NCBI GenBank assembly: GCA_002696275.1
Contig: NZRO01000039.1
Coordinates: forward strand, 8,923-68,673
Direction: 5' to 3'
From: Flavobacteriales bacterium
GTDB taxonomy: Bacteria; Bacteroidota; Bacteroidia; Flavobacteriales; BACL11
Length of the DNA: 59,751 nt
The number at the start of each line of letters is the position of its first letter. Positions within the stretch are counted from its first letter, which is position 1. The notes beneath the pieces were generated by a model. The model had not been told where the DNA came from. It was given only the letters and a program-made list of their open reading frames with translations, and made no database searches. Both the position numbers and the translations under genes were made by a program. This document shows, piece after piece, positions 3,993-21,296 of the stretch.

Positions 3993-4015
3993 TTATTTTT
4001 ATTTATTCTAAATAT
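3993..4015. promoter_or_regulatory. Putative Fur-like operator (TTATTTTTATTTATTCTAAATAT)
   Basis: 22/23 identical to the box at 19785..19807 in the iron-uptake promoter region. Confidence 0.45.
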
Positions 4016-7498: not shown

Positions 7499-7927
7499 TT
7501 ATTTTGCTTGAGCGTTTTCAAGTATATAAACACAACGATAAATATCATCAGCATTTAACTTTAAAACTCCTGTGATAGTTGCAAATTGATCCATAAAAAA
7601 AGAATCATTAACTGATTTTAAACTTAATTCTATTACCGTTTCTGGACCTCCAGCTCCACAAAAAAAACAGGATGCAAAAGGTCCTTTAGAAAGAACATAA
7701 TAACCATTATCAGGGTCTAATGCTAGAATATATCCACTAATTGATACTTTTTTATCATGAATTTCTTTAACACTAGGACCGAAATATGGATATAAAACAT
7801 ATTCACCTATTGAATCAATATACATATCTGAAAATTGAACATCTTCTAAATCCTCCCAATTAATTTGGGTTTGACAAAAACTTAATTTTATAATAAATAA
7901 AAAAATGATGATTAAATACCTATGCAT
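7499..7927 (-). CDS. DUF3299 family protein
   Basis: Signal peptide, INWEDL, ISGY, SCFFCGAGGPETVIEL; last gene of the ABC operon (8-bp overlap). Confidence 0.8.
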   Translation of the reverse strand: MHRYLIIIFLFIIKLSFCQTQINWEDLEDVQFSDMYIDSIGEYVLYPYFGPSVKEIHDKKVSISGYILALDPDNGYYVLSKGPFASCFFCGAGGPETVIELSLKSVNDSFFMDQFATITGVLKLNADDIYRCVYILENAQAK

Positions 7928-9167
7928 TTGATAATACTTTTGGAATATTAATTTTAGAGGTGATAATAGCTGGGATTAATGAAGCAATTAACCCGATAAA
8001 CAATGATATTGAAAACAACCATAATTCATCAGTAATCAATATATATTCAATACTATTTAACATTTGCTGTTGATTAACCATAAAAGAAGTCGAAAACAAA
8101 ATCAACCTACTAGTCATCAAACCAAAAATAGTTCCTAGGGTTGATATAGTTAATCCTTCTAAAAAAACTAATTTAATTAATTGTAGTTTAGTAGCTCCAT
8201 GTACGCGAATTAAAGCAAGTTCATAACGCCTATTTTTAAGTGAATTATACAAACTAAAAAATATACTTAATCCTGAAACAATTATAATAATTAAAGCTAT
8301 TAAATTTACAGTTTGCACCCCAAATCCAAGTAAACTAGTTAATCGATTTATTTCTAATACTGGCATGGCCGCTTGTAAATTTGTAGTTTCATTAACTTTT
8401 CTAGGCATTTGAATAAAAGCCACAGGACTTTTAAATCGAACTAACATAGAAGTAATCATAAATTTTTCCGAATTATAAATATCTTCATTATGATTTTCAT
8501 CTGCGTGATGATGATCGTGATGGTCATGATCTTCACAAGTGTGATGGTCATGAGTATTGTGAACATCCCAAACACTTTTTGTGTCAGTAATTATTAACTT
8601 ATCAATTGTAGTGTTGGATTGTTTTAAAATACCAACTACCTCATAGTGGTGATGATCATGTACATGACCGTCATCTCCAAAACCATGAGTACCACAAAAC
8701 ATATCTCCGATGCTTAAATTAGTTATATCAGCAACAGTGCTTCCAATAACAACTTGCATACTTTTATCCCATAAAACACCTTTGGATAAATCTGCGTCGT
8801 AAAGATCAATATACTCCTGGGTAGTCCCAACAATTCTAAATCCATTATAAGAATCTCCATAAGATAGAGGTATAGTTTGGTCAACCATAGTATTTTTCGT
8901 TAGCTTTTCAACCTCTTTATATGAAATATTTCCTGTAGGATTATCAATATGATAAATACTAGAAAGAATCAATTGTAATGGACTACCTTTTGCACCAATC
9001 ACCATGTCAATTCCTCTAAGATTGTCTTGAAGTTGTTTGTCAATTTGATTATTCAATAATAATAGAAGAGATATTACGCCTACTCCAAATGTCATTAGTA
9101 ATATACTTAAAATTGTATTTAGAGGATTATAAATAATATTTCTCCAAGCTAATCTACTAATATTCAT
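7920..9167 (-). CDS. ABC transporter permease (FtsX/MacB type) with His-rich periplasmic inserts
   Basis: DMVIGAKGSPLQLILSSIYHID, RRYELALIRVHGA; inserts HVHDHHH and HNTHDHHTCEDHDHHDHHH. Confidence 0.85.
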   Translation of the reverse strand: MNISRLAWRNIIYNPLNTILSILLMTFGVGVISLLLLLNNQIDKQLQDNLRGIDMVIGAKGSPLQLILSSIYHIDNPTGNISYKEVEKLTKNTMVDQTIPLSYGDSYNGFRIVGTTQEYIDLYDADLSKGVLWDKSMQVVIGSTVADITNLSIGDMFCGTHGFGDDGHVHDHHHYEVVGILKQSNTTIDKLIITDTKSVWDVHNTHDHHTCEDHDHHDHHHADENHNEDIYNSEKFMITSMLVRFKSPVAFIQMPRKVNETTNLQAAMPVLEINRLTSLLGFGVQTVNLIALIIIIVSGLSIFFSLYNSLKNRRYELALIRVHGATKLQLIKLVFLEGLTISTLGTIFGLMTSRLILFSTSFMVNQQQMLNSIEYILITDELWLFSISLFIGLIASLIPAIITSKINIPKVLSNA

Positions 9168-9790
9168 AATGTAATCGATTTATTAAATTGAGTCTTTATT
9201 CGATTATCATGAGTAATGATAATTAATTTAGATTTATTTTTTTCAGCCTGTTCTTTAAGTAATTTTATAATTCTTTGACAATTAACATCATCTAAACTTG
9301 ATGTTGGTTCATCAGCTAATATTAAATCTGGTTGTTTAATTACAGATAATGCGATAGAGGCTCTTTGCTGTTCTCCTTGACTTAAATCGTCTGGCATACT
9401 ATCTAATTTATTACCTAGACCTAATTCATTCAAAAGTTGCGTAACACGTTTTTCATCCTGTATATTTTTTGATAAATATAGAGATAACAATAGATTGTCA
9501 AATATATTTAAGTTTCTCACAAAATGTGGATTTTGGAAAATCATACCAATGCGCCTTCCTCTAAATTGATCCATTTCTTTTAAAGATAATTCATTATAAT
9601 TAACGCTATCTAAATGAATTTGACCTGATTTTGGTTTCAACAATCCTGCTAAAATTTGAATAAAGGTAGTCTTTCCTACTCCTGAATCACCTAAGACTAA
9701 TAAACTATCTGCATTATTCAACTGAATATCAGGAAAGTTAAATTTAGAAAGTCCATCGTATGTAAAATTTATAGATTCTGTTTTTAACAT
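9164..9790 (-). CDS. ABC transporter ATP-binding protein (LolD/MacB-like)
   Basis: Walker A GDSGVGKT, signature LSQGEQQR, Walker B LILADEPT, H-loop ITHD. Confidence 0.92.
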   Translation of the reverse strand: MLKTESINFTYDGLSKFNFPDIQLNNADSLLVLGDSGVGKTTFIQILAGLLKPKSGQIHLDSVNYNELSLKEMDQFRGRRIGMIFQNPHFVRNLNIFDNLLLSLYLSKNIQDEKRVTQLLNELGLGNKLDSMPDDLSQGEQQRASIALSVIKQPDLILADEPTSSLDDVNCQRIIKLLKEQAEKNKSKLIIITHDNRIKTQFNKSITL

Positions 9791-9824
9791 ATTTTATTAA
9801 ATTATAACTAGATATTTAATTTTC

Positions 9825-9832
9825 CAAATATA
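9825..9832 (-). promoter_or_regulatory. Bacteroidota -7 promoter element (TATATTTG) for the ABC/DUF3299 operon
   Basis: Exact TAnnTTTG match 34 bp upstream of the ATG at 9790. Confidence 0.55.
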
Positions 9833-9852
9833 AAAAAAAAGATAAAATAAAT

Positions 9853-9871
9853 AACGCAGCCAAGTTGCGTT
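9853..9871. promoter_or_regulatory. Operator-like palindrome AACGCAGC-CAA-GTTGCGTT (candidate Zur/Fur-family site)
   Basis: 8-3-8 inverted repeat with one mismatch; GC-rich island in an AT-rich divergent intergenic region between two metal-related transcription units. Confidence 0.55.
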
Positions 9872-9916
9872 TATATAAAAAAAAAACCTATTATTGCCAA
9901 AAATTAAAATTATCAA

Positions 9917-10321
9917 ATGTATAAGTTATCGTTACCCTTTGATACTATAGGAATGTTTGCCGGTATTTTATGCACTATTCATTGCTTAGCAACACCTCTT
10001 TTATTTATTGCTAAAGCCTGTTCAACTACTTGTTGTGGTGACGCTCCTGTTTGGTGGATAATGATCGATTATTTATTCTTATTTATTTCATTTACAGCTA
10101 TATATTTTATAAGTAAATCTTTAAATATAAAATGGTTGAAAATTTCTTTTTGGATTTCATGGATCATTTTATTTTTTACAATATTAGATCATTCAGTTGG
10201 AATTTTTATTCTGCCACAAAACTTTATTTATTTACCTTCTGCTTTAATTATCTTATTACATTTTTACAATTTGAAATTTTGCAAATGTAAGACGGAAACA
10301 TGTTGTTTGGAGACAAAATAA
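9917..10321 (+). CDS. MerC domain membrane protein, Cys-rich
   Basis: DTIGMFAGILCTIHCLATP MerC-type start; four TM segments; CSTTCC and CKCKTETCC clusters. Confidence 0.8.
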   Translation: MYKLSLPFDTIGMFAGILCTIHCLATPLLFIAKACSTTCCGDAPVWWIMIDYLFLFISFTAIYFISKSLNIKWLKISFWISWIILFFTILDHSVGIFILPQNFIYLPSALIILLHFYNLKFCKCKTETCCLETK

Positions 10322-10336
10322 CACTAAAGAATAATT

Positions 10337-11287
10337 TTATTGTCTAATAACTTTAATGTAGTGAACTTGTAATTGATTTATTAATATTGAAATAAAGTAA
10401 TGACCTTTAGGAAGATTATCATGTGGATTCCATGAAATAGAATATTTTCCAGGATCTAATACTTTTTCAGAAAGAGTTGCTACTATCTCTCCTTGAATAT
10501 TATAAACAGAAATAATTACTTTTGATTTTGTAAATACTCCATAATTTATTTCAATATTATCAATAAATGGATTGGGATTAGCACTATAAATTATACCTTT
10601 TTCTAGATAAATATTATTTGTATCAACTGGAATTCCATTACCATTAATTATAATATCCCAACTGCCTTCTAGGTCACCATTAGCGTTTGTAACTAATGGA
10701 ATAATTCGATGAGTAGCATCAAAAGAACCACTATTAACTGAAGCAGCAGCGTCTGTAGGAATGTAAGGATCTCCTTGAAAGTAAAGTTGTGTGATTAAGG
10801 TATTGAATCCTGGAGGTGTAATTTTAAAATGGATATGCGAAGGTCTATAAGTAGATCCATTAAGATATAATCCAGGTTTAATAGTTTCAAAAATATAAAA
10901 TCCTTGACTATTTGATGTTGTTTTTCCTCTTAAATTATATCCTGTATTATCATAAAGTCCTGCATCATTAGCATGCCAAATATCGATTTCTGTATTTGGA
11001 ATAACTTCTGAACATTCCAGATTAAATACTTGTCCACTAATAATAATCTTTATACCAGGCTCATTAACATTGGCAAGTTGATTATTCTGAATAGTAGGAG
11101 CATTAGCAGTATAAAAAGGACCTTGTCCATATATGTCTTGTGTTGATGGATTACAAGAATAACTTGAATGCTTTTTAGTAAAATTCGAAGGGTTGTTTTC
11201 TGCCTTAATAATAGTTGGTAAAATTGAAGCAGACAATAAAGACAAAGAGGTATTCTTTAAAAATTGTCTTCTTTTATTTTTTTCCAT
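10337..11287 (-). CDS. Intradiol ring-cleavage dioxygenase family protein with Tat signal and T9SS type A C-terminal domain
   Basis: KRRQFLK Tat motif; GPFY, WHANDAGLY, FETIKPGLY, RPSHIHF; CTD NPNPF...VYNIQGEIV...LPKGHYF...KVIRQ. Confidence 0.85.
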   Translation of the reverse strand: MEKNKRRQFLKNTSLSLLSASILPTIIKAENNPSNFTKKHSSYSCNPSTQDIYGQGPFYTANAPTIQNNQLANVNEPGIKIIISGQVFNLECSEVIPNTEIDIWHANDAGLYDNTGYNLRGKTTSNSQGFYIFETIKPGLYLNGSTYRPSHIHFKITPPGFNTLITQLYFQGDPYIPTDAAASVNSGSFDATHRIIPLVTNANGDLEGSWDIIINGNGIPVDTNNIYLEKGIIYSANPNPFIDNIEINYGVFTKSKVIISVYNIQGEIVATLSEKVLDPGKYSISWNPHDNLPKGHYFISILINQLQVHYIKVIRQ

Positions 11288-11304
11288 AATACAAAAGTAT
11301 TAAA

Positions 11305-15011: not shown

Positions 15012-17426
15012 CTAATAGATGTACTGTAAATTTATAAAATAGTTTATAGGAGGAGATGGTATGATACCAGGACCAGGATAGCCTGTTGCTCTTCTATTAT
15101 AATAGTGACAATTAAGTAGATTATTTATTCCGCACTCAAATATATATTTTGAAAAACCATACCTCAAATTTAAATCTAAAATATAATAAGATGGAATACT
15201 ACCAATTACACCACTAAGGTTTGATTCTACAGCATTTGTAGCATCAGTAAAATGATCTGACAAATAGGTAAACTGAATATTTGAGGAAAAATTTTTATAT
15301 CCAAAAACTAGTCCAGTTTTTAAATTTATAGAAGGGATAAATTCAACCTTGTTTCCTATTATTGATAATTCTTCTGAATTTGTATACCTAGAATCAATAA
15401 ATGATGAATTTATATAATAGTTTAATTTATAACTTCCCTCAAAAAAAGATTTTAGATTAAAATTAATTAAAGATTCTATCCCGTAAATTAACGCAGTACC
15501 AACATTATCTCTAACACTTTTTACATTTCCATCAGTTGTTATCCTTTGAACAAAGCCTATTCTATCATTATACCTTAAAAGAAAAGATGTAATATCAAAA
15601 GAAATAGTTCTATTGTGTTTACCTCTGAATCCCAAATCAAAAGTCTGCCCATACTCATCTGAAATATTAGGATCAATCATAAACGCTGGATTCACAACAC
15701 TTATATCTGCAAAAGTAACAGATCTATAATTTTGAGAAAGATTAGAATACAATTCATTATCTTTAATTTTATACACAAGCCCAACACCTGATAAAAGGAA
15801 ACTTCTCTTGTTATATTTGTTCTCATATATAGTTGTATCTTTAATGGGATTTGCAGCGGCATCTAAATTTATTTCTTTATAGTATCCTTCTGCTTTAGTA
15901 TTAATAAACTCATATCGAAATCCAGGAGTTATTGAAAAATTATCAGATAAATAAAAAATATTTTCTCCAAAAACGGAAATATTAAAATTTGGGTGAGTAT
16001 AACTTGACTGGTTGTTATAATAAGGAAATTCCTCATTATAAAAATTGAAATCTGCATCGAAATTGTTTGATCCTGGTCCTTGACTATTAGAGTTATTAGA
16101 TTTGTATAATTTTGTTCCTATTAATGAAACACATTTGATTTCTTTGATATTTGATTTATGAATTAATTTGTATTCATATCCAAAATTTTTAAATATTCCT
16201 TTAATTAAATCTCTTTCTAAAAATGGATCAATCTGATCAACTCTATTTGTTCTAAATCCTAATGCATTTCGTTCTGCATTTAAACCAAACAATGATAAAG
16301 TATAATAAGTATTTTCAGAAATTTGATGAGAAATCTTTGTATTATATAGAAACCAATTTACATAAAACCAATTTCTAGATCTGTTACTTTGAAACGGATT
16401 TTCTAGAAACATTTCATCACTTAGTCCGCCACCCTGCTGAGCGAGATACTCTAAAAATGTTATATCGCTTGAAATATTTACTTTTTCACTTATTTTCCAT
16501 TTTAGATTAATAAAGAAATTTCTAGAATTAAATTCTGAAAAATCCCTAAATCCATTGCCTTTTTTAATATTTACAAAAGAATAAAATGCAAAATTCTTTT
16601 TTGAGGCAGAAGCTGAAGTGAAATTAGTAAATAAGTGATTACTTCCAACAGTATTTCTAGTTTCAAACTTAAAAGGAGAATTTAATTCGGCTGTCTTTAA
16701 TTTAAAGTTTATTAGCCCTCCAAACTGTGTGCCATATTGTAAAGAAGCAGCCCCCCTGACTATCTCTATTCGCTCGATAGCTTCTGCTGGAGGTGTGTAG
16801 TAACTCTCTGGATATCCCAAAACATCAGCACTGATATCATAACTATTTTGTCTTGTAATAAAATTAGAAGTCCTATTTGGATCAAGACCTCTCCCCCCAA
16901 CATTTAATTGTAATCCAGCGTCATCATTTTGATATATATTTAAACCAGAAACTTGACTAAATATCTGTCTACTAGTATTTAAAGACAAGTTTGAATATAA
17001 TTCATCTATCAAAATTACTTCTGATTTCTTCCCGGCAAAAATAGAGGTTTCCTCTATGTCTTTTAGTTTGATTGTACTAAAAAGTTCTTTTCTTTGAGAT
17101 TTTATCTCTACTTGACTTAATTCAACAGATAGTGGTCTAAGTTCAATTCTTATTTTATTATCACTATCTGATAAAATTTCCGTTTGAGAGTAGTATTCCT
17201 CAGCATGAACTATAATACAAATCTTGTTTTTAATTGAGTTAAAACTAAATTCTCCTTTACTGTTTGTTTTATCAAGAATCTTAAAATCTTCATCTATAAT
17301 CTCAATATTTGAAAGTGGTAACTTTGTATCTTTATTTATAATTTTACCTGAAAATGTAAAGTTTTGAGATAAAAGAAAACTTGATTTGAATAAACAAATT
17401 AATAAAAAAAACTGCTTAGAACTCAC
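15012..17426 (-). CDS. TonB-dependent receptor (FecA-like) with N-terminal carboxypeptidase-regulatory-like domain
   Basis: Plug motifs GGRGLDPNR, YYTPPAEAIERIEIVRGAASLQYG; barrel; terminal INNL...YIY. Confidence 0.88.
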   Translation of the reverse strand: MSSKQFFLLICLFKSSFLLSQNFTFSGKIINKDTKLPLSNIEIIDEDFKILDKTNSKGEFSFNSIKNKICIIVHAEEYYSQTEILSDSDNKIRIELRPLSVELSQVEIKSQRKELFSTIKLKDIEETSIFAGKKSEVILIDELYSNLSLNTSRQIFSQVSGLNIYQNDDAGLQLNVGGRGLDPNRTSNFITRQNSYDISADVLGYPESYYTPPAEAIERIEIVRGAASLQYGTQFGGLINFKLKTAELNSPFKFETRNTVGSNHLFTNFTSASASKKNFAFYSFVNIKKGNGFRDFSEFNSRNFFINLKWKISEKVNISSDITFLEYLAQQGGGLSDEMFLENPFQSNRSRNWFYVNWFLYNTKISHQISENTYYTLSLFGLNAERNALGFRTNRVDQIDPFLERDLIKGIFKNFGYEYKLIHKSNIKEIKCVSLIGTKLYKSNNSNSQGPGSNNFDADFNFYNEEFPYYNNQSSYTHPNFNISVFGENIFYLSDNFSITPGFRYEFINTKAEGYYKEINLDAAANPIKDTTIYENKYNKRSFLLSGVGLVYKIKDNELYSNLSQNYRSVTFADISVVNPAFMIDPNISDEYGQTFDLGFRGKHNRTISFDITSFLLRYNDRIGFVQRITTDGNVKSVRDNVGTALIYGIESLINFNLKSFFEGSYKLNYYINSSFIDSRYTNSEELSIIGNKVEFIPSINLKTGLVFGYKNFSSNIQFTYLSDHFTDATNAVESNLSGVIGSIPSYYILDLNLRYGFSKYIFECGINNLLNCHYYNRRATGYPGPGIIPSPPINYFINLQYIY

Positions 17427-17440
17427 TATTTCTTGTTAAT

Positions 17441-18547
17441 CTAATCACCATCGGCATCTACATAATCAACTTTAATTCTCAAAGCTTGTAACATCTGAAT
17501 TTTCATCAAAGGGACCGCTTCTTGAATAGCATCAAAAGTGGCTAACATTTTCATATTTTCCGACTGAATCTGATTTACAAAATTATTATCTAGCATTTCC
17601 AATTGTTGTTTTGAATTTTCAAATTTTGAAATAATATCGTCAGTCAACACAGAGTTTGTAACATCTAAAAAATCAAGATAAGTCACAAGTGAACTTCCTG
17701 TTTGTAATGAGGAAAATGACTCACCAGTAAATAACTTACGAGTAGACTCTAAAGCATGTAATGCTAAAGTCTTAGAAAAATACTGACTATAAAAACCTTC
17801 AACATTTTGAGGCAAACTAGAGCTAGTAGAATATACTCCAGCTGGTATTCCTATTTTGTTTGCTCTAAATCCTTTTTCATAATAATAAATAAAATCATTA
17901 GTTAACATATTCAAACTAGAGGTCGCTGTATTTCCGTTACTATTAACGAAACTTAATTTTTCATCGTTCCAATAATTTAAGACTGATTGAGTATTGATAA
18001 CTAATTCATCAATCAAAGCTTTTGAATATTCTAAATATAAATTATCTGTATTATATAAATTTAAAATATTTGATGTATCAGAGGCAATACCATATAACAT
18101 ATAGTCCAACGCGGGAAATCCTTGAGAAGAATAATTTAGATAATTATCTGCAGAAAAATCATACATTTGGTTTTGTATGTTCATATCAATCATTGTAGTG
18201 TTACATGGGTAAGTATTAGATCTCAAATTATAAGAAATTTGTTCAGCTTTTCCTATGTTATATAATTCTACATATTGCCATGCAATATATGATTTTCTCC
18301 ATGCTGATTTTACTGTATTAAAATTTTCTTCATTAACAGAATTATAAAAATTATTGTAAGCTGTCTGTAAACTTTCAAGATTTGTTAATAAATTTACATG
18401 TGCCGGAATAATAATATTATCAACTGTATTTAACAAAACACTTTCTCTAAATGATTTATCCTCAACACTTTGTTGATTATTACTTTCTGTTGTACAAGAG
18501 GCAAATACAATTAATAAGAATAAATAAATACCTGTTTTTTTCATCAT
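17441..18547 (-). CDS. Imelysin family lipoprotein
   Basis: Lipobox FASC; AWRKSYIAWQ, GFPALDY, KIGIPAG, DADGD C-terminus. Confidence 0.85.
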   Translation of the reverse strand: MMKKTGIYLFLLIVFASCTTESNNQQSVEDKSFRESVLLNTVDNIIIPAHVNLLTNLESLQTAYNNFYNSVNEENFNTVKSAWRKSYIAWQYVELYNIGKAEQISYNLRSNTYPCNTTMIDMNIQNQMYDFSADNYLNYSSQGFPALDYMLYGIASDTSNILNLYNTDNLYLEYSKALIDELVINTQSVLNYWNDEKLSFVNSNGNTATSSLNMLTNDFIYYYEKGFRANKIGIPAGVYSTSSSLPQNVEGFYSQYFSKTLALHALESTRKLFTGESFSSLQTGSSLVTYLDFLDVTNSVLTDDIISKFENSKQQLEMLDNNFVNQIQSENMKMLATFDAIQEAVPLMKIQMLQALRIKVDYVDADGD

Positions 18548-18557
18548 CTTTCTTTTA

Positions 18558-18589
18558 AAAGAAAAGACAGCATATGCTGTCTTTTCTTT
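18558..18589 (-). terminator. Perfect 32-bp palindrome: intra-operonic hairpin or terminator between DUF4856 and imelysin genes
   Basis: AAAGAAAAGACAGCATATGCTGTCTTTTCTTT equals its own reverse complement. Confidence 0.7.
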
Positions 18590-18607
18590 GTGTATTAATA
18601 ATTAATT

Positions 18608-19714
18608 TTAAAGTCCACAAACAGCCTTAATATCAGCAGCCATTTGATTTAATTCTGCGTCAGTTCTGTCCCAAAAACCATCACCAGAATTAAGTTGATC
18701 CAACATAATATTCACTTCATCATGAGTATAATATGGATTACCATCAGCATCTACAGTAAATTGTAAAGACATGATAAATCCGTATCCTTCAGATAAAGAA
18801 TGGAAATATGCAGCTGAAAGATCAGTTTGTAAGGCTGCATCTTCTAAATAGTATGCAGCTCTTATAGCGACAACTTTTGACAAAGTTTCTTTAATTATTT
18901 GAGCTTGTTCATCTCTTACTTCAGAACAATTTTCAACAATAGCTTGTCTTCCTTCAATAAAAGCATTGTATACAGTTGCTCTATGATCTTCATATTTAGT
19001 TAAATATTTTCCTAATAGATTGTCTCCTGAAATTTCTTCAGAGGTAACTCCGTCAGCTCCTTGAATTCCATAGATGTAACCATATCCTTCGTCCCAGTGA
19101 TGTTCCATATCAGTGTAAGGATCTCTTGTAACATTATCTACAACATCACCAATCTTTGCCTCACTTAAATATCCGTTAGCTACTTGATCCAGACATAGAG
19201 CTCCTATAAGACCCTTTGCGAAGAATTGATCTAATTCCTGTCCTTTAGCATTTAACTCTCTATTATCAACCCAACCAGGAATACCGGGAGCAGCTTGAGT
19301 CCCAGCAGCCATGGCAGGGGCAACATTTGAAGTATAGTCAACTAACCAACTATCAAACATAGCCTGAATATTAGCTTTTACAGTTGCTGTTTGATATCCA
19401 GCAGTTTTACTTCTAACTTGCTTACCACTAGCATCCAATGTTGCATCAGCAAAACCTGTCCCATCAGCAAACATCTCATTCAAAATCGCAACATCAGTTG
19501 TTGTTTCGTCTTCCAATTTTCCTAAAATCTCATCTACCATTTTCAATCTAGCTGTTTGACCACCAAAAGAAACTGTATTTGTACCATCATGTGAAAACAC
19601 ATAATTTTCTGGAGATGAAACACTACACTCAACAATATCATTATCTGTACCACATGAACTAAATATTACAATAGTTGATAATAAGGCAGCTTTAATAAAA
19701 TTTAATTTTTTCAT
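18608..19714 (-). CDS. DUF4856 family surface lipoprotein
   Basis: Lipobox FSSC; VSFGGQTARL, ELDQFFAKGLIGA, MEHHWDEGYGY, HSLSEGYGF; first gene of the imelysin/TBDR operon. Confidence 0.82.
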   Translation of the reverse strand: MKKLNFIKAALLSTIVIFSSCGTDNDIVECSVSSPENYVFSHDGTNTVSFGGQTARLKMVDEILGKLEDETTTDVAILNEMFADGTGFADATLDASGKQVRSKTAGYQTATVKANIQAMFDSWLVDYTSNVAPAMAAGTQAAPGIPGWVDNRELNAKGQELDQFFAKGLIGALCLDQVANGYLSEAKIGDVVDNVTRDPYTDMEHHWDEGYGYIYGIQGADGVTSEEISGDNLLGKYLTKYEDHRATVYNAFIEGRQAIVENCSEVRDEQAQIIKETLSKVVAIRAAYYLEDAALQTDLSAAYFHSLSEGYGFIMSLQFTVDADGNPYYTHDEVNIMLDQLNSGDGFWDRTDAELNQMAADIKAVCGL

Positions 19715-19753
19715 TTTTTTTTTTTAAATTAATAATTCAGCAAAGATTGTATA

Positions 19754-19776
19754 TTATTTATAATAAATCCAAATAA
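19754..19776. promoter_or_regulatory. Fur-like box 1 (TTATTT-N11-AAATAA)
   Basis: TTATTTATAATAAATCCAAATAA upstream of the DUF4856-imelysin-TBDR operon. Confidence 0.6.
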
Positions 19777-19784
19777 AAACAATA

Positions 19785-19807
19785 TTATTTTTATTTATTC
19801 TAAATAA
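19785..19807. promoter_or_regulatory. Fur-like box 2 (TTATTT-N11-AAATAA)
   Basis: TTATTTTTATTTATTCTAAATAA, just upstream of the TATTTTTG -7 element (19818-19825) of the DoxX gene. Confidence 0.6.
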
Positions 19808-19850
19808 AAATTATTTATATTTTTGTAACATCAAAAAATTATAAACAATT

Positions 19851-20303
19851 ATGAAAAAATTATTACATACAGTATTTACTATAATACTTGCTATTTTCTT
19901 TATATATAAAGGAGTGGAGAAAATGCCTATAAAGACTAGTGAAATTTCAACTGAAGAGATAGAACAGTTGTCTAAAGGAGATTATCTGAATTCTGAAACA
20001 GGAGTTAAACCAATAGGATATAAAATCACAATGAATACTATGAGAACTTCTGGATTTATTCAAATGATTGGAATCTTTCAAATTTTAGCTGGAGTCTTAA
20101 TGATAATTCCCATAACAAGAATTATTGGAACATTTCTGCTTTTGCCAATTATATTTAACATTTTTATGATGCATGTATTCTTTGACAACAGAATAGATGA
20201 AAATATATTATGTGGAACCTTATTATTTATAAATGTACTTTTATGTTTCTTTTATTATAGTAACATAAAAACAATCATTATACACACCAAGTTAACAAAT
20301 TAA
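19851..20303 (+). CDS. DoxX family membrane protein
   Basis: Four TM segments; KG..K, GIFQILAG.L, LLLPIIFNIF..H pattern. Confidence 0.7.
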   Translation: MKKLLHTVFTIILAIFFIYKGVEKMPIKTSEISTEEIEQLSKGDYLNSETGVKPIGYKITMNTMRTSGFIQMIGIFQILAGVLMIIPITRIIGTFLLLPIIFNIFMMHVFFDNRIDENILCGTLLFINVLLCFFYYSNIKTIIIHTKLTN

Positions 20304-20315
20304 ATATATTGAATT

Positions 20316-21296
20316 TTGATTTATTTTGAGGAAATAAAACTGTTAGTTCTAGAAGCTATTAACCTATCAACATCTTATTTTATTAATCCAGAGAAAAGAA
20401 TCTATATCCTTTATTTATTTACATCTTTAATTTTATCCTTTTACGTGTATAATAGAGGTAAATATAAAAAAGAATCATTTTTGAAATTTATATTTAATAA
20501 AAAGGTTTGGTTGAGCAAATCATCAATAATTGATTATCTCTTTTTCTTTTTTAATTCCCTGATAAAGATTTTATTTATAGCACCATACATTTACTTTAGT
20601 TTTGTACTTGCGTTCTATACTACAGACACATTGGAACAAAGCTTTGGTTTTTACCAAAATAACTCCTCACAGATTGTAATTATTATTAGTTATACTGTTT
20701 GCCTTACTATTGTTAATGATTTTTTCAGTTATATTTTACACTATTTGATGCATCATAATAGAATTTTATGGGAATTTCATAAAATTCATCATGCGGCTAC
20801 AACCTTAAATCCAATTACACAATATAGAATTCATCCAATAGAATTAGTAATTAACAATTTGAGAAGTATATTTGTTTTTGGTATTGTAACAGGAATATTT
20901 GATTATTTTTCATCTCAAGAAATTAACAAACTATTATTTCTTGGAGTTAATTTTTTTAGCTTCTTATTTTATTTATTTGGAGCAAATCTGAGACATTCTC
21001 ATATAAAATTGTCATACCCTAAATTTTTTGAAAGAATATTTATTAGTCCCTACCAACATCAAATACACCATAGTATTAACAAAAAACACTACAATAAAAA
21101 TATGGGTTCTAAACTAGCAATTTGGGATTGGATGTTTGGAACTCTAGTATTTTCAGGAAAAATGAAAAGTATTAGATATGGTATAAAAGATACTCAACAT
21201 AATTATCAAGGTTTTTGGTATAATATTTTCAAACCATTTATTGAGTCAAAAAATATAATTTTTTCATATTTTAATTCATCGAAGAAGAATCAGTAA
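20316..21296 (+). CDS. Sterol desaturase / fatty acid hydroxylase family membrane di-iron protein
   Basis: His boxes HYLMH, HKIHH, RHSH, HQIHH; KNMG..LAIWDWMFGT. TTG start. Confidence 0.88.
   Translation: MIYFEEIKLLVLEAINLSTSYFINPEKRIYILYLFTSLILSFYVYNRGKYKKESFLKFIFNKKVWLSKSSIIDYLFFFFNSLIKILFIAPYIYFSFVLAFYTTDTLEQSFGFYQNNSSQIVIIISYTVCLTIVNDFFSYILHYLMHHNRILWEFHKIHHAATTLNPITQYRIHPIELVINNLRSIFVFGIVTGIFDYFSSQEINKLLFLGVNFFSFLFYLFGANLRHSHIKLSYPKFFERIFISPYQHQIHHSINKKHYNKNMGSKLAIWDWMFGTLVFSGKMKSIRYGIKDTQHNYQGFWYNIFKPFIESKNIIFSYFNSSKKNQ

Follow-up and report, generated by a model that had tools for sequence, protein, structure and literature searches.

The gene analysed here, from the small marine genome of a Flavobacteriales bacterium, encodes a protein of 316 aa, followed by a stop codon, that by its sequence appears to be an intradiol dioxygenase similar to SACTE_2871 of Streptomyces and, at the same time, a predicted cargo of the T9SS with an unusual pairing of export signals, namely a Tat-type leader at the N-terminus and a T9SS C-terminal domain (CTD) at the other end. 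This pairing was not found described in the T9SS papers searched. We consider it reasonably probable that the full chain holds, that is, that a working dioxygenase would be exported by Tat and then secreted by the T9SS. The parts of the protein are laid out in Table 1; "the window" denotes the whole stretch of DNA analysed, 59,751 nucleotides in length.

Table 1. Layout of the dioxygenase gene and its predicted product (positions are those of the window)
Feature	Position	Strand	Basis or remark
Whole ORF	10337-11287	minus	predicted: leader of the Tat type, dioxygenase core of the minimal intradiol form, and type A CTD for the T9SS
Predicted Tat signal peptide, residues 1-29	11201-11287	minus	sequence reading; cleavage after IKA inferred
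Twin-arginine motif R6-R7-Q-F-L-K11	11255-11272	minus	conserved in homologues
Low-complexity N-terminal tail of the mature protein, residues 30-44	11156-11200	minus	predicted disordered, AF2
Intradiol dioxygenase beta-sandwich core, residues 45-215	10643-11155	minus	Pfam PF00775, Foldseek
Cys45	11153-11155	minus	invariant in 92 family members
Cys92	11012-11014	minus	invariant in 92 family members
Tyr112, equivalent of Fe ligand Tyr408 of 3,4-PCD beta	10952-10954	minus	alignment to 2pcd_M
Tyr141, equivalent of Fe ligand Tyr447	10865-10867	minus	alignment; invariant in relatives
R148-P-S-H151-I-H153, equivalents of Arg457/His460/His462	10829-10846	minus	alignment; codons checked
Inter-domain linker, residues 216-232	10592-10642	minus	AF2 pLDDT dip
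T9SS type A C-terminal sorting domain, residues 233-316	10340-10591	minus	PF18962, TIGR04183, AF2

Distribution and genomic setting

A profile scan of species genomes identified at least 588 stretches encoding a relative of the dioxygenase. The matches listed belong mostly to Flavobacteriales, Saprospiraceae, Lewinellaceae, Chitinophagales and Sphingobacteriales, are nearly all metagenome-assembled genomes (MAGs) and represent ocean, sludge, freshwater and soil habitats; no cultured isolate carrying the gene is found among these listed matches, and looking for a cultured host yielded MAGs and metagenome proteins only. The gene is present in 13 of 41 relatives of the genome under study, always as a single copy that encodes about 310-323 aa, and on account of this patchy presence it is best regarded as an accessory gene.

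Both sets of export machinery are encoded in the genome (1.79 Mb, 93.6% complete): TatC (212.9 bits) and two TatA proteins on the one hand, and, on the other hand, SprA (2649 bits) and PorU (1304 bits), the two T9SS components searched for. Because TatC is universal among the relatives (41/41), its co-occurrence with the dioxygenase is uninformative.

The dioxygenase gene is located 17 nt after a lipid-synthesis operon and converges on a gene for a MerC-like protein beside a His-rich ABC permease, an order that is kept in close relatives only. Within the 17 nt between the acyltransferase stop codon and the dioxygenase ATG (11288-11304, minus strand), the octamer TACTTTTG (11292-11299) agrees with the -7 element of Bacteroidota, TAnnTTTG, and ends 4 nt before the ATG; a -7 element in this position would imply a leaderless or near-leaderless transcript. 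The corresponding spacer in a 90%-identical orthologue is 182 nt long, and a scan for sigma-70 promoters and terminators gave results at the chance level. Across 37 orthologous loci, no neighbour family is present in more than 9, and those that do recur have the appearance of housekeeping genes; the neighbours seen in the window were not found beside orthologues beyond the close relatives. With no conserved neighbours across the 37 loci, we no longer assume that the gene belongs to an operon or a catabolic cluster.

Three genes occupy the segment of the window at 7499-10321. The permease (7920-9167) is of the FtsX/MacB type and contains two His-rich inserts, its ATPase is encoded at 9164-9790, and the third product (9917-10321) is a divergent member of the MerC family whose ends are rich in Cys; MerC, ATPase and permease also occur together within a few kb of the dioxygenase at the locus of a 62%-identical orthologue. 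Elsewhere in the window, a 23-nt AT-rich box (hereinafter iron-box) is found in three copies, at 3993-4015, 19754-19776 and 19785-19807, with at most 3 mismatches (0.02 expected by chance).

This setting bears on a reading in which the protein takes the Tat and then the T9SS route but serves in iron metabolism, cleaving catecholate siderophores outside the cell and thereby freeing iron or depriving competitors of it, which we consider rather unlikely. The predicted binding of catecholates at the Fe(III) centre would suit such a role, as would the position of the gene, which adjoins the metal-transport-like module described above and is 3.7 kb from an iron-uptake locus (15012-21296), and the origin of close relatives in the iron-poor open ocean (Tara samples). 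However, this neighbourhood is lost outside the close relatives, none of the three iron-box copies in the window lies near the gene, and relatives are found in sludge, soil and freshwater MAGs as well. On the same grounds, the substrates proposed in a first-pass annotation of this DNA, algal phenolics or catechol siderophores, find no support in the gene context. Cytoplasmic iron loading via Tat would make an extracellular enzyme of this kind possible, but that it is a siderophore-destroying dioxygenase at the cell surface, which releases iron for uptake or denies it to others in iron-poor water, seems to us improbable.

Predicted export signals at the two ends of the protein

The leader comprises the n-region MEKNK, the motif RRQFLK, a weakly hydrophobic, Ser/Leu-rich h-region (NTSLSLLSASILPTII) and a c-region in which the basic residue K28 is found and cleavage is likely to take place after IKA. 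The motif reads K-R-R-Q-F-L-K in this protein (residues 5-11) and S/N/D-R-R-x-F-L-K in the orthologues, in agreement with the Tat consensus S/T-R-R-x-F-L-K. The maximum 10-residue Kyte-Doolittle hydrophobicity of the h-region is 1.9, compared with a median of 2.78 for the CTD-bearing ORFs of the genome; it is the least hydrophobic among those of these ORFs that have an apparent signal peptide. The leader is accordingly predicted to be of the Tat type.

The motif is conserved throughout the family. In unselected family sets, RRxF[LI][KRQ] is present in 118 of 120 clusters of close relatives and in 105 of 112 diverse clusters, and the looser RRx-hydrophobic form in 111 of the latter; these counts show that the KRRQFLK motif singled out in the first-pass annotation does not occur by chance. 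The twin arginine is kept in 13 of 14 close homologues, and the Tat leader in all full-length orthologues from the 37 species loci. Among 80 diverse species loci, 75 have the leader (66 together with the CTD and 9 without it), and four CTD-bearing exceptions carry RK variants. An R[RK] motif was a criterion for inclusion in the alignment of 92 family members used for some of the analyses below; the invariance of R6 in it is therefore circular and is not taken as evidence; the unselected sets are the 37 loci, the 80 loci and the 120 and 112 clusters.

Within the genome, a leader of this kind is rare. An N-terminal RR.FLK is found in only 4 of approximately 2,600 ORFs. Of the three apart from the dioxygenase, two have a leader of the Tat type, namely an ORF that we take to be ActB-like, with a weak TAT_signal match, and an alkaline-phosphatase-superfamily protein. 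Altogether, the number of ORFs whose Tat leader is convincing is only about four: a metallophosphatase, the ActB-like protein, the alkaline-phosphatase-superfamily protein and the dioxygenase. The RRx-hydrophobic motif occurs in only 2 of the approximately 77 CTD-bearing ORFs, and the dioxygenase is, as far as can be read from the sequences, the sole CTD protein whose leader is of the Tat type. RR is present in just one further CTD protein of the genome, encoded by a 1745-aa ORF (contig C11:18144-23382, plus strand) that begins ...NNMRRSFLKFLTFIYILSAYLSL and combines an RRSFLK motif with a very hydrophobic, Sec-like h-region.

Export by Sec, with the RR motif persisting as a relic of a Tat-dependent ancestor and with folding and metal uptake occurring in the periplasm as in ordinary cargo, appears quite unlikely. 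The case for it is that all characterised T9SS cargo is Sec-dependent and that, in the 1745-aa ORF, MRRSFLK is followed by a Sec-like h-region, so that RR alone is not diagnostic. Further, the Pfam TAT_signal profile (PF10518) has no match in residues 1-44 of the dioxygenase even at E<=10; this profile gives no match on the metallophosphatase and alkaline-phosphatase-superfamily candidates either and scores 17.1 bits versus 22.7 on the ActB-like one, and because it missed two of the three other Tat candidates, we treat it as insensitive in this AT-rich genome. A relic would be expected to decay, but RRxF[LI][KRQ] is kept at the frequencies given above in relatives with identities down to 31-44%, and the least hydrophobic h-region and the basic residue in the c-region are each a Tat feature.

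At the C-terminus, the Pfam domain Por_Secre_tail (PF18962) matches residues 238-308 with 28.5 bits (cut-off 27), and the NCBIfam model of the T9SS type A sorting domain, TIGR04183, scores 24.1 (cut-off 23); both curated cut-offs are exceeded only slightly, so the assignment to type A made in the first-pass annotation holds, albeit narrowly. A profile was also built iteratively from the ORF tails of the genome itself, which identified approximately 77 ORFs with T9SS-type CTDs in 1.79 Mb, and the dioxygenase tail matches this profile with E 2e-16. The tail contains the motifs PNPF, NIQGxxV and G-x-Y...KVIRQ, and the domain runs to the last residue; AlphaFold (AF2) predicts a seven-strand beta-sandwich for it (strands within residues 231-315, pLDDT >90). 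The fold-related FlgD_ig model also matches this region and outscores the CTD models in many relatives.

The marginal scores lend some credit to the view that the protein is a periplasmic Tat enzyme whose C-terminal sandwich is a binding or Ig-like (FlgD_ig-like) module with no working T9SS signal, as does the FlgD_ig match, since among diverse relatives FlgD_ig is the more frequent of the precomputed annotations. The C-terminal module of SACTE_2871 is likewise a binding module and not a sorting signal, according to the PDB title, and many non-Bacteroidota relatives are Tat proteins that lack the CTD, many of them lipoprotein-like by sequence. We nevertheless assign a low probability to this view, given the extreme C-terminal position of the domain, the PNPF, D/NxxGxxV and terminal K-x-x-x motifs, the strong match to the CTD profile of the same genome, the origin of the CTD-bearing forms in our trees and lists from genomes of Bacteroidota and the FCB group, that is, the group that has the T9SS, and the presence of SprA and PorU genes.

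In a tree of the catalytic core with 127 representatives, which is weakly resolved, nearly all members have the Tat leader, whereas the CTD occurs in one part only and is missing from a clade of 61 members; some of the 300-aa members that seem to be devoid of a CTD have CTD-like tails below the threshold. This distribution, with the leader nearly everywhere and the CTD in part of the subfamily, makes the CTD look like an addition to an already Tat-dependent enzyme. The simplest reading is that a Tat-dependent enzyme gained the sorting tail in T9SS-bearing lineages.

The dioxygenase core

The Pfam domain Dioxygenase_C (PF00775) matches residues 55-186 with E 2.3e-28 and 99.3 bits (cut-off 27.3). 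When the protein is aligned by HMMER with the beta subunit of protocatechuate 3,4-dioxygenase (chain M of 2PCD, with chain positions counted by hand), Y112, Y141, H151 and H153 fall on the four Fe(III) ligands, Y408, Y447, H460 and H462, respectively, and R148 falls on Arg457, which bears out the ligand and Arg equivalents proposed in the first-pass annotation. These residues are contained in WHANDAGLY (residues 104-112), KPGLY (137-141) and RPSHIHF (148-154). Within the alignment of 92 family members, R148, Y141, H151 and H153 are invariant and Tyr112 is conserved in at least 90% of the sequences; the second-shell residues W104, R120, Q167, Y169, F170 and D173 are invariant or nearly so across relatives with 31-79% identity. 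All equivalog models of catechol 1,2-, chlorocatechol and protocatechuate 3,4-dioxygenases missed their cut-offs by a wide margin: TIGR02465 (83.4 vs 359), TIGR02422 (70.4 vs 296), TIGR02438 (68.9 vs 404) and TIGR02439 (65.7 vs 392). These low scores (83 vs 359 and 70 vs 296 for the best two) would be compatible with a protein that binds Fe(III) or catechols but does not catalyse, such as a scavenger or adhesin in which the fold is kept without turnover. However, the four ligands, Arg148 and several second-shell residues are retained at 31-79% identity, as one would expect if the active site works, and the nearest solved relative is reportedly an active enzyme, so that we regard this as highly improbable.

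A Pfam search of the 316-aa protein found no Dioxygenase_N match, that is, the helical dimerisation domain is absent; the genome encodes a single PF00775 copy and no partner subunit. An AF2 model with pLDDT 88.4 was obtained from the alignment of 92 family members, all of full length and translated from loci in species genomes, which replaced a set of 15 near-identical sequences (pLDDT 45); pLDDT is below 50 for residues 21-41, in the leader and the tail after it, and dips to 63 at residues 221-230. The best Foldseek match of the model is the dioxygenase domain of SACTE_2871 (4ILT; TM 0.94 on target, rmsd 1.6 A, 30% identity), which is also the best PDB match by sequence (4ILT/4ILV, E 6e-20), and many members of the intradiol dioxygenase family are matched with Foldseek probability 1.00. 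In the model, the core is a minimal form of the intradiol fold, without the helical dimerisation domain of the catechol 1,2-dioxygenases. The enzyme is probably monomeric, and, by analogy with SACTE_2871, its active site is predicted to be open. The model is structurally close, too, to a minimal catechol 1,2-dioxygenase encoded by a soil-metagenome phage (PDB 9YH9, released 2025; TM 0.81 on target); thus, the stripped-down intradiol fold occurs on mobile elements too.

Cys45 and Cys92 are a possible disulfide pair, judging by their conservation. The alternative of Cys45 as a lipoprotein cysteine was rejected: this residue is 16 positions beyond the h-region, behind charged residues, has no lipobox and, in the model, lies inside the structured core.

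Proposed route, known counterparts and implications

The route that we favour can be described in four steps. The enzyme would fold and take up iron in the cytoplasm and then be exported in the folded state by TatA/TatC through its RRQFLK leader, a route that would ensure correct metal loading where free extracellular iron is scarce. The leader would be cut off, probably after IKA29. The type A CTD would then guide the folded, metal-loaded protein through the T9SS, with SprA as the translocon, after which PorU would remove the CTD, and the enzyme would be freed or kept on the cell surface. Finally, as the conserved ligands and fold suggest, it would open catechol rings outside the cell between the two hydroxyls, in an O2-dependent reaction. 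The route proposed in the first-pass annotation, a cofactor-loaded enzyme exported by Tat and then secreted by the T9SS, is thus consistent with the in-silico results: the motif and the CTD are co-conserved, the genome encodes TatC, TatA, SprA and PorU, the weak hydrophobicity of the h-region is as in Tat leaders, and the fold and ligands are intact. Two other elements of that interpretation do not stand: its substrate suggestions have no backing in the gene context, and its premise of a cytoplasmic location for the characterised bacterial intradiol dioxygenases is incorrect, because SACTE_2871 of Streptomyces sp. SirexAA-E (PDB 4ILT/4ILV), the nearest relative with a solved structure, is a secreted enzyme, as stated in the PDB title and in text citing it.

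The present protein, for which secretion is predicted, resembles SACTE_2871 (Bianchetti et al. 2013, J Biol Chem 288:18574) in that both consist of a minimal beta-sandwich without the helical dimerisation domain and an additional C-terminal module. In SACTE_2871, this module is a CBM5/12 binding domain, whereas in the dioxygenase it is, by prediction, the T9SS CTD sorting signal. SACTE_2871 comes from a Gram-positive actinomycete, so that Tat alone puts it outside the cell; the present protein must cross the outer membrane too, the step for which the T9SS CTD would serve. SACTE_2871 is reported to have a Tat-type leader, to be monomeric with an open active site and to cleave lignin-pathway catechols.

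The protein shares with type A CTD cargo, such as RgpB of P. gingivalis and ChiA of F. johnsoniae, a C-terminal sandwich of about 80 aa, the PF18962 and TIGR04183 matches and a genome that encodes SprA and PorU. It differs from the characterised T9SS cargo in its leader, which is predicted to be Tat-type and not Sec-type. That cargo bears Sec-dependent signal peptides according to T9SS reviews and a 2025 primary paper, and the cargo set of T9GPred agrees, in line with what the first-pass annotation had said on this point. In the papers searched, Tat is named only in generic lists of two-step systems, and T9GPred, based on 102 experimentally known T9SS cargos, demands the absence of a Tat signal; since none of these known cargos has one, a Tat-to-T9SS hand-over would be without precedent. 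Our literature search, with incomplete coverage, found no paper describing such a hand-over. The T9SS transports folded proteins (T9SS review), which makes it mechanically plausible.

A two-step route of this kind is known for the phospholipases PlcH and PlcN of Pseudomonas aeruginosa, which are secreted by Tat and then by the T2SS. Two-step secretion by Tat and T2SS is also stated in general terms in a review. As with PlcH and PlcN, the route proposed here involves folded export by Tat followed by an outer-membrane system that accepts folded proteins; the differences are the T2SS secretin versus the SprA barrel of the T9SS and a structural signal versus a cleavable CTD.

Protocatechuate 3,4-dioxygenase beta and the catechol 1,2-dioxygenases have the same Tyr2His2 Fe(III) ligands, Arg457 and core fold, but are cytoplasmic and oligomeric and are encoded in catabolic operons, whereas the present protein lacks a partner subunit, Dioxygenase_N and pathway genes. 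Fungi and spider mites have secreted intradiol dioxygenases as well (PDB 5VG2, 6BDJ; PMC9167512), and secreted members are reported to cleave complex plant catechols; the fungal and mite enzymes have the same fold and are extracellular, but they are eukaryotic, undergo ER-type secretion and reach a TM of only 0.66 to the model.

Searches of the genome detected no muconate cycloisomerase and no pcaB above the cut-off. For a lone, patchily distributed gene with no catabolic partner genes, ring cleavage is probably not part of classical catabolism or the beta-ketoadipate route. The predicted open active site, taken together with the absence of muconate and beta-ketoadipate genes, suggests bulky, polymer-bound or toxic catechols rather than a carbon source. 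By analogy with SACTE_2871 and the fungal and mite enzymes, we favour action at the cell surface, on catechols that are bulky or bound to polymers or on toxic ones.

In T9SS papers and tools, cargo is by definition a protein with a Sec leader, and one predictor rejects any candidate that has a Tat signal, while a Tat leader and a CTD are kept together in hundreds of Bacteroidota species. The family is small, has a solved relative and lends itself to an easy assay, and thus offers a direct test of the Tat-to-T9SS hand-over of proteins folded and metal-loaded in the cytoplasm. If the proposed route is correct, T9SS secretomes are under-predicted, and the T9SS could display cofactor-containing enzymes. 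Abundant uncultured Bacteroidota, in the ocean and elsewhere, would then be capable of O2-dependent extracellular cleavage of aromatic rings, and so of a part in phenolic organic-matter turnover that they are not usually given credit for.
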